This document shows positions 1,205 through 8,694 of a stretch of DNA of 64,000 bases, piece by piece. Position 1 is the first letter of the stretch. Every line of letters begins with the position of its first letter. The notes beneath the pieces were generated by a model. The model had not been told where the DNA came from, made no database searches, and saw nothing but the letters and a program-made list of their open reading frames with translations. A program made the position numbers and the translations under genes. Source of the stretch: Escherichia coli (GTDB taxonomy: Bacteria; Pseudomonadota; Gammaproteobacteria; Enterobacterales; Enterobacteriaceae); assembly GCF_024502345.1 (NCBI RefSeq), contig NZ_JALDNN010000001.1, one strand, 5' to 3'.

Positions 1205-2515
1205 ATGAAACCCGATAGTTCTTTAAACCAAATAACGCAGACAATGAAACGGAATGATGTTGATTCTGTGGATAGTCGCTTTTTTGAGTCAGCGCAAAAC
1301 ATGAAAACCAGCGTTGACGTTGAAGATTGCTGCGTTGAAGTGATGGTTCGACATCACAGCCCAAAGAATCAAAGAGAGGCATTCACTAAAGCTTTTTTTG
1401 ATGAGTGTAAAATCCGTGCAGTACAAACTGGCCGGACTATCGAAGCCAGCGATACAAAATGTACCGGGCTTAAGGCTATATTCCACTCATCCGGACGCAT
1501 TAAGTTTATTGTCCGCAAAAGTATTCGCGGAAAGAATGTTTACGTTGCAGTAGGAAGTTACCCTGAATTTTCCATTAATAACGCAAGGGAACATGCCTTT
1601 AAAATAATTCAGGAGCTTAAGGCTTCCGTTGAGACTTATGGTGAGCGTTTTCTTACTCACAGTAAAATGACGTTTAATGAGCTTGTGGATGAGTATGAGA
1701 AAAGCGTACTCAGCACGGGCGTTAAGCGTTCAGCTAACACCGATCTTTCTAAGATCCGTAAATACCTGCGCCCTCTTCTCGGTGCCAAAAAGCTGGCAGG
1801 TATGACGGAGGCAGATATTCTGAGCTATCTGCATAATCTCGATCTCAAGCCTGCCACCCGCAACCGCCATCTGGCGCTCATTAAAGCGGTGTTTACCAGG
1901 GCAATACGCATGGGATACATCAGCCGCTCTCCGGCGCTTTATATCAAAGCGCTGCCTGAAGTGACGTCAGATCGCCGTGCCATGGATGACTCCCAGCTTC
2001 AGCGCTGGATGGACGTCTGTGAGCGCTGGCGTAATGGTAAACCCGATCATGAAGCCCTTGCTCTTCTCATGTTCCTTGCCCTGACGGGGCTGCGTCTGGG
2101 GGAAACCCGTCACCTTCGTCTTGAAGATGTGGACTGGAGCCGCAAGGTTATCACCCTTCGCCATACCAAAAACGGCAAACTACGCCGTGTACCGGTATGT
2201 GATAAGGCTTTCGTTCTTCTGACAGAACAGCGTCAGCATCTGGGTGATGAAGGCTGGGTATTTCCGGGCAAGGGAACCGACAATCCGGTTGCTGAGCCGC
2301 GTCGCCTGCAAAAACGACTTTGTGAGGCTGCGGGTATTCCACCGTTCACCATCCATGAGATGCGTCATACCTTTGCGACAAAGCTCATTGAGAGCGGGGC
2401 CGACATTCACACCGTCAAAGACTTATTGGGTCACAGCACTATCAAAGTAACGGAGCTTTACTTGCACGCTTCCCCGGCGCGTTACCACGAAGTCGTTAAC
2501 CGGGCGATGGGGTAA
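1205..2515 (+). CDS. tyrosine recombinase / P4-type integrase (436 aa)
   Basis: C-terminal catalytic motif HxxR...Y (HTFATKLIESGADIHTVKDLLGHSTIKVTELYLH); N-terminal arm-binding-like segment. Confidence 0.85.
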   Translation: MKPDSSLNQITQTMKRNDVDSVDSRFFESAQNMKTSVDVEDCCVEVMVRHHSPKNQREAFTKAFFDECKIRAVQTGRTIEASDTKCTGLKAIFHSSGRIKFIVRKSIRGKNVYVAVGSYPEFSINNAREHAFKIIQELKASVETYGERFLTHSKMTFNELVDEYEKSVLSTGVKRSANTDLSKIRKYLRPLLGAKKLAGMTEADILSYLHNLDLKPATRNRHLALIKAVFTRAIRMGYISRSPALYIKALPEVTSDRRAMDDSQLQRWMDVCERWRNGKPDHEALALLMFLALTGLRLGETRHLRLEDVDWSRKVITLRHTKNGKLRRVPVCDKAFVLLTEQRQHLGDEGWVFPGKGTDNPVAEPRRLQKRLCEAAGIPPFTIHEMRHTFATKLIESGADIHTVKDLLGHSTIKVTELYLHASPARYHEVVNRAMG

Positions 2516-2584
2516 CAACCTTCACTCAACGGTATGGTTTTTAACTATGGTTCTGATGCACCCGTTTTCTGACGGTGGCGTAAT

Positions 2585-4513
2585 TTGATGGTAATACACA
2601 TGAATAAAAAAGTGACAACTAATGTTCCTAAGGTTTCCGGGATTAAGCGTATTCGCGCTTTTGCTGACCGCGATAAAAATTTCAACAAAATGTCGGAAGC
2701 AATTATCAGGCGTGCTGAAAACACTGAGGTCGGTGAAGATGATATCGCTTCACTCGGTATTGGTGATGGGCTGCCACGGCATTATGTGAATACGGCTAAT
2801 GGCCTTTTCTACATCGGTGGACAGAAACCTGTGCAGGTTTGCACCACGCCAGTTGTGCCTGTCGCCCTGTTTTGTGGAAAAGATAAGGAGTCCGGTCTTG
2901 GGATCAGCCTGATGACCGGTAACGGGCTGGGTAAGTATGTTAAGGCCCTGGTACGCTTTGAGGATATTGTTCAGAGCGGTGCTCAGGTAGTAGGCAAACT
3001 GGCAGATCGTGGATTTTGTGTTGGCTCCTCTCCACAGCAGTTTGCCCTTTTTGACCGTTTTCTTCAGCGCTGCCGGAGTTTACCGCTGCCTGTCTATCTG
3101 ATGGCAGATGCGATGGGATTCGTTTCGGAGGATATGGCCTTTTTACATGGTCATGAGCCCGTTGTGACCTCTCTGACCGGGTTTGATTATCTACTGCCGG
3201 GATTCCGCGTGCGTCCCGGACTGCACAAAGGTGGGGCCCTGGAGGAGTGGATTAACCTCATCCGGGAAAATGTCCATGGCTGGGCGCAGACCTTTGCACT
3301 GAGTGCGTCCTTTGCTTCGATGCTTCTGGTTCCTGCCGGTATGGATGTGGGCATGTTTCATTTTCACGGCGTATCCACCACCGGTAAAACGCTTCTCCTG
3401 ATGCTGGCTGCATCGGTCCATGGTGATGGCAGCGAGCCGGGTAGTGGGGGGAATGTAAATATTATTCGCTGGAATACCACGCCTAACGCGATGGAGCGCC
3501 TTCTCGCTGACTATTCCGGTCTGGTCGCCTGCGTCGATGAACTGGGTGCGAGTAATCATAAGCAACTTTCCTCACTGCTTTACAACATTACGTCAGGTAC
3601 GGCAAAAGAGCGCCTGAACCGTGGCCTGACGGCAGATGAGCCGTTTAAATGGCGCATGTTTATTCTCTCCACCGGTGAGATGTCAATCTCCGAAAAGCTG
3701 GCTGAACAGAAAGCCGTGTTACAGGGAGGGCAGGAGCACAGGGCCATCAGTATGGAACTGTTGCCTGAGGATGCTCAAAAACCGGATGAACCGGTATCAG
3801 AAACACGTGCCCGTGCAGATGCACTGAAGACGGGGCTGGCAGAGGCTTATGGTCATGCCGGGCCTGCATTTATCGGCAAACTGTTATCCGGGAAAAATAC
3901 GGCTGGCGGTCTTCGCACCTACGCAGAGTTTTCATCCTGGCTCCAGGAACAGACAGATGATTGCTGTAACGCACTGGAAGAGGCCCTGAGGGATGAGGGG
4001 CGTGATATTACCCGCGTTCAGCGGCGCGGACTGAAAAGATTTGCGCTGGTATGGCTGGCAGGAGAGAAGGCGCTGAAATATGGCCTTTTACCTTTCGAAA
4101 GCGATGCGGTGGCTGAATCCGTTATGTCCGCTGCACGACGCTGGCTGGATGATAACCAGAATCAGTATAACCCGGTGCGTAACATGCTGGAGGAGCTTCA
4201 GCTGACGCTGGTGACAAAAAGCAGCAGGCACTTTATCACCCTGCGTGACGAACATGCCCGATGCCCGGGAGATATGTGGGGATTCGTCCATTACAAAACC
4301 GGCGACTTCCTGATTTATGAATCGGTGTTTGAAAAGCTCTGTTCTGAAAAGGGACTTAAGACCGTTGATGTGGCCAGACCGTTAGAGCGTTCCGGTTATC
4401 TGCTTGGCGAAAGTGCCGGACACTATAAAAAAAGAGCGCTGAAGACGATGGCGCAGTCTTACTACCAGGTCAAAAAAGCGTTTCTGAAATGCAATGTGAT
4501 GACCGAATTTTAA
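2585..4513 (+). CDS. DUF927-like / P4 alpha-like SF3 helicase-domain protein (642 aa)
   Basis: Walker A GVSTTGKT and Walker B-like VACVDELG; immediately downstream of integrase; domain assignment from memory. Confidence 0.6.
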   Translation: MMVIHMNKKVTTNVPKVSGIKRIRAFADRDKNFNKMSEAIIRRAENTEVGEDDIASLGIGDGLPRHYVNTANGLFYIGGQKPVQVCTTPVVPVALFCGKDKESGLGISLMTGNGLGKYVKALVRFEDIVQSGAQVVGKLADRGFCVGSSPQQFALFDRFLQRCRSLPLPVYLMADAMGFVSEDMAFLHGHEPVVTSLTGFDYLLPGFRVRPGLHKGGALEEWINLIRENVHGWAQTFALSASFASMLLVPAGMDVGMFHFHGVSTTGKTLLLMLAASVHGDGSEPGSGGNVNIIRWNTTPNAMERLLADYSGLVACVDELGASNHKQLSSLLYNITSGTAKERLNRGLTADEPFKWRMFILSTGEMSISEKLAEQKAVLQGGQEHRAISMELLPEDAQKPDEPVSETRARADALKTGLAEAYGHAGPAFIGKLLSGKNTAGGLRTYAEFSSWLQEQTDDCCNALEEALRDEGRDITRVQRRGLKRFALVWLAGEKALKYGLLPFESDAVAESVMSAARRWLDDNQNQYNPVRNMLEELQLTLVTKSSRHFITLRDEHARCPGDMWGFVHYKTGDFLIYESVFEKLCSEKGLKTVDVARPLERSGYLLGESAGHYKKRALKTMAQSYYQVKKAFLKCNVMTEF

Positions 4514-4562: not shown

Positions 4563-4919
4563 ATGATTTTTGAATCAGACCAGTACTATGACGGTTTTCC
4601 TCACGCTATCAGCAGCGAAAATGAAGAAAAAACCTCATTCAATGATTACGCTCTGGTTAACACACTGGCGGAGTGCCTGTATCACGACATTTCTCGTGAA
4701 ATCTTCGATGGCAGTGAGCCGGCGCTCCGGGCCGTCATTGCCAACGGTCAGATTAAATTCCTGGCTCGTTATACGCTTAGAGGGGCCTGCTATTATGAAC
4801 CCCTCGGCACATTTCCACGTATGCCCGTTAACGTCGCGCGTGAACGAGCACGTGAACTCTATAACAGATTTGATGATCACCGGGTGCCGGATGAAGAATA
4901 TGGGGCCATCCCGTTCTGA
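4563..4919 (+). CDS. hypothetical protein (118 aa)
   Basis: ORF 50 bp downstream of the helicase-like gene on the same strand. Confidence 0.45.
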   Translation: MIFESDQYYDGFPHAISSENEEKTSFNDYALVNTLAECLYHDISREIFDGSEPALRAVIANGQIKFLARYTLRGACYYEPLGTFPRMPVNVARERARELYNRFDDHRVPDEEYGAIPF

Positions 4920-4973: not shown

Positions 4974-6158
4974 TCACAAGGACGGTAGCTGAGCCGTTAT
5001 CCTTTCCGCCAGTAACTGACTGGTGTTCTGTAAGCGCTGAGGATGAAGATGCGCATACCGTTGTGAAGACTGACTGCTGCGGTGCCCCAGTTGAGCCTGA
5101 ACGTCATACAGTGTTCCGCCGTAGGACACGATGAGGGCGGCAACCGAATGGCGGCAGGTATGAATACACACTTCTTTGTCGAAAATTCCCGCCCGACGAA
5201 CGATACGCTGAAAGGCTTTAACGGGGTTATTCAGCGGCATTCCTTGTTTTTTACCGATAAACAACCACGGATTTCCACGCTGTGTTGGCAGTGTTCTGAT
5301 TACGTCCATCGCCAGTGAATTAAGATGAACAATCCGTCCATAGCCATTCTTGGTTTCCGGGAGCCATAGGGTGCGTTTAACCGGGTCAACATGCTCCCAC
5401 TTAGCCAGACGCAGTTCATCACGACGAAGGCCGGTCAGTAACAGCAGTTTGACATAGCGGGCAGCTACGGGGCTGGTATCGTTATCGGCGGAGAGAAAAA
5501 TACGACGAATTTCGTCCTCGGTAAAATAACGCTGTCGGGCGTTGTTCTCCCTGAGTAGCTGTACCACCCTTGCCGGATGAACAGAGGTCATGCTTTGCCT
5601 TCCGGCCCATGTAAAGACGGCTTTAATGAGTACGATGACACGGTTACAGGTAGCCGCTGACAGGGAAGTACTTAACGTCTGCTGAAGGCGCAGAATGCTC
5701 GCTGGTGTGATATCGCTCAGCAGCCTCTGACCAATGGCGGGACGGATATGATCGCGGTAGCGCTGAACATCCTTTCCCCAACTGCGTTTAGCGGATTTTG
5801 CCCATGGCAGATAATGCTGATTAAAGAGTTCATCGAACGTCAGCTCCATTCTCTTGTTTTCACGCTCCTGCTTAGGGTCAGTGCCGGTGGCAAGGGAACG
5901 TTTGTGTTCTATGGCAATCTGACGAGCAAGATTGACGTCCACTTCAGGCCAGTGACCAATGGCGATGGCGCGTTTTCGTCCATGATAAAGGTAGCGTAGC
6001 AAAAACTTTTTACGACCTTCTCTTCTGCTGACCAGACACTTGAGGCCGGAAATCTCAGTGTCGCTGTATTCGGCATCGGTACTGCGTGCATCGGATGTGT
6101 TAGGGGGCAGGGATTTAATGAGCTGATTAGTAAAACGGAAGCGTTTGGGGGTGGACAT
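4974..6158 (-). CDS. P4-type tyrosine integrase (394 aa)
   Basis: Catalytic motif HTCRHSVAALIVSYGG...LGHRSSQSSQRYAH; arm-binding-like N-terminus; tRNA-proximal. Confidence 0.85.
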   Translation of the reverse strand: MSTPKRFRFTNQLIKSLPPNTSDARSTDAEYSDTEISGLKCLVSRREGRKKFLLRYLYHGRKRAIAIGHWPEVDVNLARQIAIEHKRSLATGTDPKQERENKRMELTFDELFNQHYLPWAKSAKRSWGKDVQRYRDHIRPAIGQRLLSDITPASILRLQQTLSTSLSAATCNRVIVLIKAVFTWAGRQSMTSVHPARVVQLLRENNARQRYFTEDEIRRIFLSADNDTSPVAARYVKLLLLTGLRRDELRLAKWEHVDPVKRTLWLPETKNGYGRIVHLNSLAMDVIRTLPTQRGNPWLFIGKKQGMPLNNPVKAFQRIVRRAGIFDKEVCIHTCRHSVAALIVSYGGTLYDVQAQLGHRSSQSSQRYAHLHPQRLQNTSQLLAERITAQLPSL

Positions 6159-6503
6159 ATAACCTCCTGTGACTGGTGTAAAGAACGTCAGGGTTGCCCC
6201 ATCCCCGGCACGGCGCTGTTAATGGCTGAGTTGATTTTCTGGTGTGGCTAAGGGAATGCTGGTGCCACATGGGATGAATGAAGACGAGAAATACAGCAAA
6301 AACAGGCGTTACGGTCTGCTTCTGGTCTTAAGGGGAAGATTGCCGTTGGGGAAGAGTTCACAGAAATAATATGTGTTTCAGTCGGGTATAATTACATGTG
6401 ATAAGGGCAAAGAGCGTGCTTTGCTAAAATTTGACATGTTGAAGTCCACTCTTTTTAACGATGTCGTTATGGACGACATGGCGAGTCTTGCTTAGATAAT
6501 TAA

Positions 6504-7091
6504 TCAAAATACTGTGACTTTGGACCCACGTTTACCACATTTCGAGCACTTGAGCCGAGTTTTAAGGTCTTCTAGAGTTACTCCCATTGCAACATACTGC
6601 TTAAGGTCGTTCAAAGTAAGGATTGTGGGGAGACGACAAAAAAATCCAGAGGCGCAACATACCAGCATCTCCGAGCCGTTTTTTAACCAGTCCTCAAGAT
6701 TATCGTGCGATCTCGTTAGTCGTTCGATATCCGCTCTCCACTGCTGGATTTCATTACCGTTCCAGTCGATATTTAGCTCGATTTGTTTGGCAACGAACCG
6801 GTGTTTACCTCTGTTAACTGTGGGTTCATAGTCCTTACGTTGATCTTTGATGAGATCAGCCTCATAGAGGAAATCATCGTTTTTGTTGTCGGTATAATCA
6901 AAAATTACCTTAATTAAATCAATATCAACGTTTTGTTTTTTGATGAATAAACCCTGTGTTCCGCTTCCGTTCAAGTCCCGGCTAAAGTTAATGTTGAGAT
7001 GGCGGCGGAGTGAGAAGAAATAGCTGTGGCCGTGCATAGCCAATGCAAGTCTGGCTATGTCATTGCAGTTGTAGGGTGTGTGTGTATCCAT
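6504..7091 (-). CDS. hypothetical protein (195 aa), AT-rich, C-terminal CxxC
   Basis: ORF between integrase and tRNA-Phe; low GC; ends CSKCGKRGSK. Confidence 0.45.
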   Translation of the reverse strand: MDTHTPYNCNDIARLALAMHGHSYFFSLRRHLNINFSRDLNGSGTQGLFIKKQNVDIDLIKVIFDYTDNKNDDFLYEADLIKDQRKDYEPTVNRGKHRFVAKQIELNIDWNGNEIQQWRADIERLTRSHDNLEDWLKNGSEMLVCCASGFFCRLPTILTLNDLKQYVAMGVTLEDLKTRLKCSKCGKRGSKVTVF

Positions 7092-7607
7092 GATGTTACC
7101 TTTAATTCATATTCGGTCGAGAGCGTCAGGAAACTATCCTAATATACCTTTTTTCTACACCAGTATTTGGATCAATTTTCATCCCTTTGGCCTGCTTCTT
7201 GTTGATTAACTCTCAGCGATGTTTGAAATAGGCCATCAGTGGTCAGAATCATTTTTTACTTCCACTTTTTGCTCAGATTTGACCCTAAGGTCTAAGTTCC
7301 AATACGTTTCGCTCAATTACTATCACCCCTGATAAATTATTCTATGATGACGTGGAGGGCGGGGGATTCAGGCAATGTTAAGAAATGAAAGGTTTAAATG
7401 CGAATATTACAGGTGGAGGAGGTGGTGGATACCCCCGACTGACAAGGGGAGTTGATGGCGCTGAGTTCACCCCCTTGCCTGAAGAGGAGTCTCCCCGGTC
7501 TTCCCCCGGGGGGGATGGCAGGTAATTTGTTGTTAAATAAAGTAAATTATGAAATCCCCCATTTCCCCCGTATTCTCTGCTTCATTATGAATAATCTTAG
7601 AGAAAGG

Positions 7608-7764
7608 AACCGTAAAGGACCGTAGAAAGACCGTAGCTGTGAGGTGAGGGAAGGCACATCAGAGGATGTTGAGGTGTCTAAAAGTAACGAACATCTGCAA
7701 AAATGGTGAAAAATCCAGCAAGAAAATAACGTGTTGCAACGACCAGAAATCTACCGTAGCTAAG
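7608..7764. repeat. four direct copies of accgta(g/a) near the tRNA-Phe 3' end; candidate integrase arm sites
   Basis: Copies at 7608, 7619, 7630 and 7753 read directly. Confidence 0.3.
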
Positions 7765-7805
7765 AAAGGAAAAAGCCCCGCTTTTCAGCGAGGCCTTATG
7801 AATAT

Positions 7806-7881
7806 TGGTGCCCGGACTCGGAATCGAACCAAGGACACGGGGATTTTCAATCCCCTGCTCTACCGACTGAGCTATCCGGGC
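7806..7881 (-). tRNA. pheV: tRNA-Phe (anticodon GAA)
   Basis: Reverse complement reads GCCCGGATAGCTCAGTCGGTAGAGCAGGGGATTGAAAATCCCCGTGTCCTTGGTTCGATTCCGAGTCCGGGCACCA, the canonical E. coli tRNA-Phe. Confidence 0.95.
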
Positions 7882-7986
7882 AACGGGGCGCATTAAACCT
7901 GATTCGCCTCGTCTCGTCAATCAAATTTCTTCAATTTACTGCAGACTGCACAATCTATCATCACTTTGCCGCTATTGCACGCATTG

Positions 7987-8694
7987 TCAGGCAAACCAGG
8001 CGGTCCAGGCGGCGGAAAGCGGCATTGCCAGAAGGAGTGCTGGAAGCATGTTGACCACCGGGAACATTTTAATGCCACAGATGCGTAATCCGGTTGCCAG
8101 CAGCAATAAACCGCCTACGGCGCTGAAGTCTGCCATCATCGACGGTGTGGTCAGCGGTAATATCAGCGCGGCAGCCCACGCCAGCGTTAACTGGATGATC
8201 AGTAATGGGATACTAATTACCGACACCGCAATACCCAGCGAGCAGGCGAAGATCATCGCCGTAAAGAAATCAAGAAATGACTTGGCGATTAAAATACTCG
8301 GATCGCCGGTCATCCCTTCGTTCATCGCCCCGAAGATCCCGGTGCCGCTGGCGCAAAACAGGACAATAATCGCGACATAATTCTGAATAAAAGATTCATG
8401 CGCTGGCTTCTTACGTGAGTGACGAAACAGATTTTGTGCTTTGGCGACTGCTGTATTGACACCTTTCTCCAGCAAACAAATTTCGCCAATTAGAGCGCCA
8501 AGTAGCGTAGCTAAAACCATCGCTGGAAGGTTGGCGCATTTCACAACCAGTAAAATACCAATCCCCAGCGATGCCAGACCAAAAATAGATGTCATGGAGA
8601 CGCGGATACGTTCCGGTAAGCGTTGGCTGAGCAGTGCGCCGAGAACGCCACCCAGTAAGACTGCACTAGCGTTGATAAAAGGGCCGATGACCAC
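7987..8694 (-). CDS. yqgA: DUF554 family inner membrane protein (235 aa)
   Basis: Hydrophobic 235-aa ORF between pheV and speC, as in K-12. Confidence 0.8.
   Translation of the reverse strand: MVIGPFINASAVLLGGVLGALLSQRLPERIRVSMTSIFGLASLGIGILLVVKCANLPAMVLATLLGALIGEICLLEKGVNTAVAKAQNLFRHSRKKPAHESFIQNYVAIIVLFCASGTGIFGAMNEGMTGDPSILIAKSFLDFFTAMIFACSLGIAVSVISIPLLIIQLTLAWAAALILPLTTPSMMADFSAVGGLLLLATGLRICGIKMFPVVNMLPALLLAMPLSAAWTAWFA

Follow-up and report, generated by a model that had tools for sequence, protein, structure and literature searches.

In phage lambda, the arm-type sites P'1-P'2-P'3 lie in attL and are bound by the N-terminal domain of the integrase, and more such sites are present on the other arm (Ross and Landy 1982, cited in PMC2951348). 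Recombination directionality factors can likewise bind phased direct repeats. In the P4 record NC_001609, 12-bp features with the consensus TGGGGGCATA are annotated as 'attP arm sequence repeat'. According to PMC2951348, which cites Piazzolla 2006, P4 Int downregulates its own expression. The mapped arm sites of IntS, the integrase of KplE1 (CPS-53), are located in attL, where they overlap the int promoter and are implicated in int repression (PMC2951348). The common E. coli island GI-pheV, which carries intP4, has 19- or 23-bp direct repeats, with int immediately beside pheV (PMC11537424); arm sites are not mentioned in the treatment of GI-pheV given there.

The locus described here contains a cluster of ACCGTA repeats. 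In the window, the whole stretch of 64,000 nucleotides of E. coli DNA that was analysed, these repeats are likely to be arm-type binding sites situated in the attL (P') arm of an approximately 22-kb integrative island in pheV. On the + strand the hexamer occurs at 7609-7614, 7619-7624, 7630-7635 and 7753-7758, followed by A, G, G and G in that order, and the copies lie 48-53 bp and 171-197 bp past the 3' end of tRNA-Phe. A preliminary description of the DNA had placed three copies within 33 bp and a fourth about 120 bp off, 40-200 bp from the tRNA, and the start positions of 7609, 7619, 7630 and 7753 bear this out. The repeated unit exceeds 6 bp, as GACCGTAG is present twice and AACCGTAA once, and the fourth copy has a degenerate partner, GACCAGA, 11 bp away at 7741-7747. 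The half-site can be written [G/T/A]ACC[G/A][T/G]A on the + strand, where it recurs every 10-11 bp, or as the 7-bp T[A/C][C/T]GGT[C/A/T] on the tRNA strand, for example TACGGTC. Its informative core is short, YGGT plus flanks.

Five half-sites were found in attL (7608-7635 and 7741-7758). Three of them, TACGGTC, TACGGTC and TACGGTT, form a distal arm cluster running from 7635 down to 7608 on the - strand with spacings of 11 and 10 bp. The other two, 11 bp apart, make up a proximal arm site at 7741-7758 (- strand), which reads TACGGTAGATTTCTGGTC on the tRNA strand and includes the fourth ACCGTA. The three adjacent direct repeats in the int-side arm are reminiscent of lambda. However, the lambda sites are closer to the core, the distal triplet being 210-240 bp from the inferred crossover and thus farther out than the lambda P' sites, and the window has an extra core-proximal pair. 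IHF consensus sites were sought by eye between the core and the arms, and nothing convincing was seen there. The idea that the repeats are a simple promoter element found no support, as the promoter scan gave no promoter overlapping them. The Rfam search of 6000-8000 matched the tRNA only and thus gave no support for a structured RNA.

The target of integration is the tRNA-Phe (GAA) gene, pheV, at 7806-7881 on the - strand, detected by ARAGORN and by Rfam tRNA with a score of 68 bits. Since yqgA and speC lie to the right of the tRNA-Phe gene, the gene is pheV and the foreign DNA is at lower coordinates. The alignment of K-12 to the window begins only at 7795 and continues onward, so the repeats are island DNA and not chromosome. 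The tRNA-proximal region is present in approximately 97 of 5,426 complete E. coli genomes, and the best match to the window has 98% identity. In E. coli 2017.17.01CC the island is about 22 kb long, lies between yghD and pheV, and carries a type I restriction-modification system among other cargo. At the far end of this island (L002:5968-6016) the 3' half of the tRNA is directly repeated over 49 bp. The block of identity comprises tRNA positions 28-76 and occupies 7806-7854 (- strand) in the window. This repeat establishes pheV as the integration site, as had been proposed in the preliminary description.

The repeat begins at the identical base, which lies in the anticodon stem, in a Tatumella island and in six further attR variants of E. 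coli, and we infer that the crossover site is probably within the 49-bp block, at the anticodon loop or stem-loop. The P4 core is 20 bp long, whereas the identity block here is 49 bp and reaches the anticodon stem; a short core of the P4 kind (about 20-23 bp) at the extreme 3' end of the tRNA was not found. The island shares with GI-pheV the target tRNA and a co-oriented, P4-like integrase. It differs in having the 49-bp repeat and in being able to follow a GI-pheV-type island in tandem. In strain MMC-J-0020, the island is located behind a second island of the Ag43/CbtA type, and the homology to the window ends 23 bp into the tRNA, which is expected if the second island came later via the short 3'-end core of GI-pheV. 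A 172-bp remnant of the attL arm, 90% identical and with the proximal pair intact, was also observed beside the LEE island of E. coli 2000-3039 (L004:6001-6172), where an IS3 element cuts one side and a 23-bp tRNA repeat joins the other side to another island.

The possibility was considered that the repeats cluster by chance and have no function. After dinucleotide shuffling, non-trivial hexamers of whatever sequence form a triplet within 33 bp about 0.95 times per 64-kb window, and the real window has five. By itself, the repeat count is not significant window-wide, and the hexamer count was discarded as proof because the shuffles yield approximately one such triplet per window. A cluster of ACCGTA specifically is unlikely by chance, and within the arm of about 300 bp beside the tRNA the triplet expectation is about 0.005. 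The case for the repeats rests on their position and on the comparison with related islands.

The strict pair pattern, with an expectation of 0.045 per 64 kb, was found at the att and int sites and at one unrelated match (60162); in L002 it adds the attR arm alone (6136-6152). A broader regular expression, in which the half-sites are 10-11 bp apart, matched the 64-kb window only at 6310-6327, 7608-7624, 7618-7635 and 7741-7758, all of which fall in the att/int region. Related loci totalling 159 kb gave 34 matches to the broader pair pattern, built on a half-site derived after inspection of the data, compared to an expectation of 0.23.

The relatives consisted of 21 loci from an integrase-alignment scan of representative genomes and four from exact-protein look-ups. 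The subset that adjoins tRNA-Phe has 12 loci from approximately six lineages, with integrases 63-99% identical to that of the window: 95-99% in E. coli, Enterobacter, Kluyvera, Buttiauxella and Pseudocitrobacter, 84% in Citrobacter, 83% in Edwardsiella, 70% in Rosenbergiella and Tatumella, and 63-65% in Limnobaculum, Cedecea and Yersinia. The Aeromonas relatives are not directly beside tRNA-Phe and served only as an out-of-sample check of the motif.

The proximal pair starts 47-48 bp past the tRNA end in all 12 loci, and the distal tandem cluster lies at +169 to +242, with at least a tandem pair in every lineage. The sequence GGT..ATTT.TGGT is invariant across the approximately six lineages, whereas its flanks have diverged and the rest of the arm is unalignable. 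In close relatives, substitutions in the triplet region are confined to the spacers. In four alignments the sites were conserved along with the integrase lineage, in contrast to the diverging arm sequence around them. The absence of the repeats from homologous islands with the same integrase would have counted against the preliminary description, and the repeats were found to be present. An island-borne intrinsic terminator for the restored tRNA was located at 7772-7797 (- strand) by a terminator scan. Its stem differs between lineages by compensatory substitutions that leave the length of the hairpin unchanged, and the +48 spacing of the arm site is therefore preserved.

Chance clustering has in its favor that a hexamer triplet arises about once per shuffled 64-kb window. 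However, position, spacing and motif are kept across the approximately six lineages, down to Aeromonas, while the flanks diverge, and this together with the 34 pairs observed against 0.23 expected effectively refutes it, so that the explanation is extremely improbable. A concerted switch in specificity from TACGGT to TCCGGT (A to C) was also considered and downgraded, because both variants occur within single islands: TACGGTC and TCCGGTC are adjacent in the Edwardsiella island, and Rosenbergiella also mixes the two.

The motif is not restricted to attL. The attR arm is conserved for just 136 bp past the repeat, with CTACCAGAnnnCTACCAT exactly at its end; this sequence is retained in attR variants that are 77-86% identical. 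In the 8-kb Tatumella island, AATGGTAGACATCTGGTAGC is 122 bp from its repeat, compared to 117 bp in E. coli. The attR pairs are at L002:6136-6152 and L034:15197-15215. Several copies of a short motif distinct from the core are therefore present to either side of it, and since pairs of the same type occur in attL and attR, the excised circle would have like-oriented pairs flanking the core. Additional copies were observed in some islands. The distal arm cluster is duplicated at L011:3448-3465 and at L033:7184-7201 and about 7625-7645, and the Tatumella island has, past its far repeat, a second attL-like arm with terminator and proximal pair (L034:15386-15450). These duplicates and the second arm suggest that cargo was gained via tandem integration followed by deletion.

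The protein proposed to bind these sites is a tyrosine integrase of 394 aa with an N-terminal arm-binding domain, encoded at 4974-6158 (- strand) and co-oriented with the tRNA. The gene is not adjacent to the tRNA but 1.65 kb from it. Pfam identified Arm-DNA-bind_3 (PF13356, 2.5e-13, residues 10-101), Phage_int_M and Phage_integrase. The residues R245, K270, H333, R336, H359 and Y368 (R-K-H-R-H-Y) are invariant in the family alignment, and the arm-binding domain is densely invariant across the family. Residues 21-105 match PDB entry 3ju0 (E 3.4e-7), a 108-residue chain with the depositor name 'Phage integrase'; we take this entry to be the part of the HAI7 island integrase that binds arm-type sites (Szwagierczak et al. 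2009). The N-domain of lambda Int belongs to a family other than Arm-DNA-bind_3/DUF4102. The order of Arm-DNA-bind_3, central domain and catalytic domain is that of P4-type integrases (DUF4102 / IntSXT-subgroup, the subgroup being defined in PMC8138268). The preliminary description spoke of a P4-type integrase; the identity to P4 Int is only 27% over 394 aa (E 3e-13). The best phage integrase matches have 23-31% identity, and the 25 matches listed do not include P4.

The half-site is found once more near the integrase gene. An inverted pair at 6310-6327, TACGGTCTGCTTCTGGTC on the + strand, lies 152 bp upstream of the int ATG and is a candidate auto-regulatory operator. It is present in all relatives, at -152 to -188 bp from int, including L007, L009 and four Aeromonas loci (57-60% identity), none of which was used to define the pattern. 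By analogy with P4 and KplE1 (PMC2951348), the inverted pair is probably an operator through which the integrase represses its own gene. KplE1 likewise has arm-type sites in attL and provides the precedent for sites in the int region acting as an operator. However, the KplE1 promoter is inside attL beside argW, whereas here a cargo slot intervenes between the putative operator pair and the attL arm. A conserved block, ACACATATTATTTCTGTGAAC, lies upstream of the inverted pair at 6356-6376 (- strand). It contains TATTAT, a possible -10 element of the int promoter judging by sequence; the consensus promoter scan made no call at this block.

The overall arrangement resembles that of P4, in which the core has a tandem pair to either side, all in one orientation, and an inverted copy lies at the start of int. 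The domain architecture of the integrase and the choice of the 3' part of a tRNA gene as target are also shared. The differences are that P4 has TGGGGGCATA 12-mers and not TACGGTC half-sites every 10-11 bp, and that P4 int abuts attP, whereas 1.3-5.5 kb of cargo lies between the arm and int here. The comparison with the P4 arm sites suggested in the preliminary description thus holds for the layout and fails for the repeats themselves, which are unrelated in sequence. A similarity in sequence to the P4 arm repeats was rejected; only the layout is common to both. The reading of the ACCGTA repeats as arm-type sites is supported by their fixed positions in 12 of 12 loci, by the recurrence of the motif in attR and upstream of int, and by the Arm-DNA-bind_3 domain of the integrase.

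The stretch from the attL arm to the region upstream of int (6330-7550 in the window) is a variable cargo slot, occupied mostly by defence genes. In relatives the cargo includes Septu PtuA/PtuB with an Mrr-like nuclease, a dCTP deaminase, a SIR2 protein, GmrSD, a PDC-S26 nuclease and a HEC-07-like protein (L005:330-3900, L010:1470-5800, L023:2300-5800, L035:2700-7700 and L011:1900-5550); the slot of L008 has an EAL/PTS_EIIC protein instead of defence genes. The sole gene in the slot of the window is ORF195 (6504-7091, - strand), which matches phrog_30162, of unknown function, and could be a candidate defence gene.

Phased repeats might also be recognized by a protein other than the integrase. 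A recombination directionality factor, that is, a small DNA-bending protein resembling Xis, Vis or TorI, or another island regulator, could bind them; in this scheme a protein filament nucleated by the repeats would bend the arm in excision and repress int. Direct repeats in tandem, with a period of 10-11 bp, are typical of these proteins, and the TorI sites of KplE1 fall within attL, where they overlap the promoter of intS (PMC2951348). The island also encodes small uncharacterised proteins, a 79-aa protein with a weak HTH_DeoR match and a stand-alone protein resembling the Arm domain. However, the small ORFs have no match to the Xis, Vis or AlpA families in Pfam, PHROGs or NCBIfam. Moreover, neither candidate is universal, as the 118-aa arm protein is absent from L011, L012, L023, L035 and L036 and the HTH_DeoR protein from L033 and L034. 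The presence of the motif on both arms and upstream of int matches the annotated P4 arm repeats, and an arm-binding integrase needs arm sites, for which there is no better candidate on both arms. A directionality factor of a kind that these searches do not recognise, perhaps among the uncharacterised small proteins, or another regulator is an unlikely binder.

The stand-alone protein of 118 aa is encoded at 4563-4919 (+ strand) and is found in only part of the family. It resembles the arm-binding domain of the integrase, with 41% identity over 37 aa to the N-terminus of the 394-aa integrase and 37% over 52 aa to a 436-aa recombinase. It is quite improbable that this protein binds the GGT half-sites of the integrase and acts as a new directionality or copy-control factor, in which case the half-site array would be more than a scaffold for recombination. 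If it did, it might compete with the integrase or bridge the attL arm to the int operator, which are 1.3-5.5 kb apart across the defence-gene slot.

The 436-aa protein is a second tyrosine recombinase and, followed by a DUF927/Cch-like helicase, forms a backbone module at 1205-4513 (+ strand) that is convergent with the 394-aa integrase. The module is kept where the integrase is just 63% identical to that of the window and is missing from the Tatumella island; it may serve replication after excision. The region upstream of the second integrase (700-1250) contains neither the half-site motif nor the G-rich repeat described below. The helicase raises the possibility that the repeats are replication-origin iterons used after excision. 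The arms would join in the excised circle to bring seven half-sites into about 400 bp, a DUF927 protein carrying a Cch HTH domain is encoded in the conserved backbone, and iterons are likewise short phased direct repeats, P4 having octamer iterons near its attP. However, the Tatumella island lacks DUF927 and has the sites at unchanged positions, and in the window more than 3 kb separates the DUF927 gene from the sites. Furthermore, the constant +48 spacing and the presence of an inverted pair upstream of int are a better fit to a role in recombination or as an operator, and iterons are thus very unlikely. The 8-kb Tatumella island, which has neither the second integrase nor the DUF927 helicase, kept all of the sites. 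Because both are lacking there, an integrase of the 394-aa type is the only recognisable DNA-binding protein shared, which argues against the second recombinase as the binder as well as against helicase iterons.

A second family of repeats, designated B, is located at the outer end of the conserved attL arm (7491-7570, - strand), where tandem CGGGGGAA units occupy 7554-7570 and 7491-7508. The units are of the form CGGGG(G)AA, for example CGGGGGAAATGGGGGAT at 7554-7570. The B repeat was seen in L005, L006, L010-L012 and L033-L036, just past the distal arm cluster and, in either orientation, a second time at 105-430 bp upstream of int. The homology between island variants breaks immediately after it. 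It might be argued that these G-rich repeats (CGGGGGAA) are the true arm sites and that the ACCGTA family has another role, such as a host-factor site or promoter element. B pairs are enriched in the related loci (17 compared to 0.58 expected), they occur upstream of int as well as in the conserved attL arm, and they bear a superficial resemblance to the P4 arm repeat TGGGGGCATA. However, they are missing from both attR arms examined and from the attL arm of L011, L012 and L035, and they vary in orientation and distance, unlike the ACCGTA-type pairs, which are fixed in position and occur on both arms. We regard it as very improbable that the B repeats are the arm sites; they may instead belong to another factor.

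With the ACCGTA family as the arm-type sites, a mechanism can be proposed in which we infer that the integrase is the binder and that it controls its own gene. The 394-aa integrase would contact DNA at two types of site. The catalytic and core-binding domains of the integrase would work on the crossover site within the 3'-terminal 49 nt of tRNA-Phe, probably at the anticodon stem-loop, while the N-terminal Arm-DNA-bind_3 domain would dock on the 7-bp half-sites. As the half-sites recur every 10-11 bp, several protomers are proposed to lie on one face of the DNA. In the layout of the sites, a pair is 48 bp and the triplet 171-198 bp from the tRNA end, and a matching pair is about 117 bp past the repeat on the other arm. 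Bridging of arm and core would assemble the recombination complexes for integration and excision, and the inverted pair 152 bp upstream of the int ATG would let the integrase repress its gene. The sites themselves, where they lie, how they are conserved and the domains of the integrase are matters of observation.

Arm sites are an expected feature of an ordinary kind of element, and the current understanding of site-specific recombination is unchanged by this result; the family of islands is, however, previously uncharacterised. The analysis defines the att architecture of widespread tRNA-Phe islands in E. coli, Enterobacter, Kluyvera, Citrobacter, Edwardsiella, Yersinia and Tatumella, with relatives in Aeromonas. 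The elements mapped are the core, represented by the 49-bp identity block, both arms, the half-site motif and the probable int operator. Because the islands carry anti-phage defence genes, these elements are of practical use: they allow precise island boundaries to be drawn, minimal attP substrates to be designed, and mobility and autoregulation to be tested directly.
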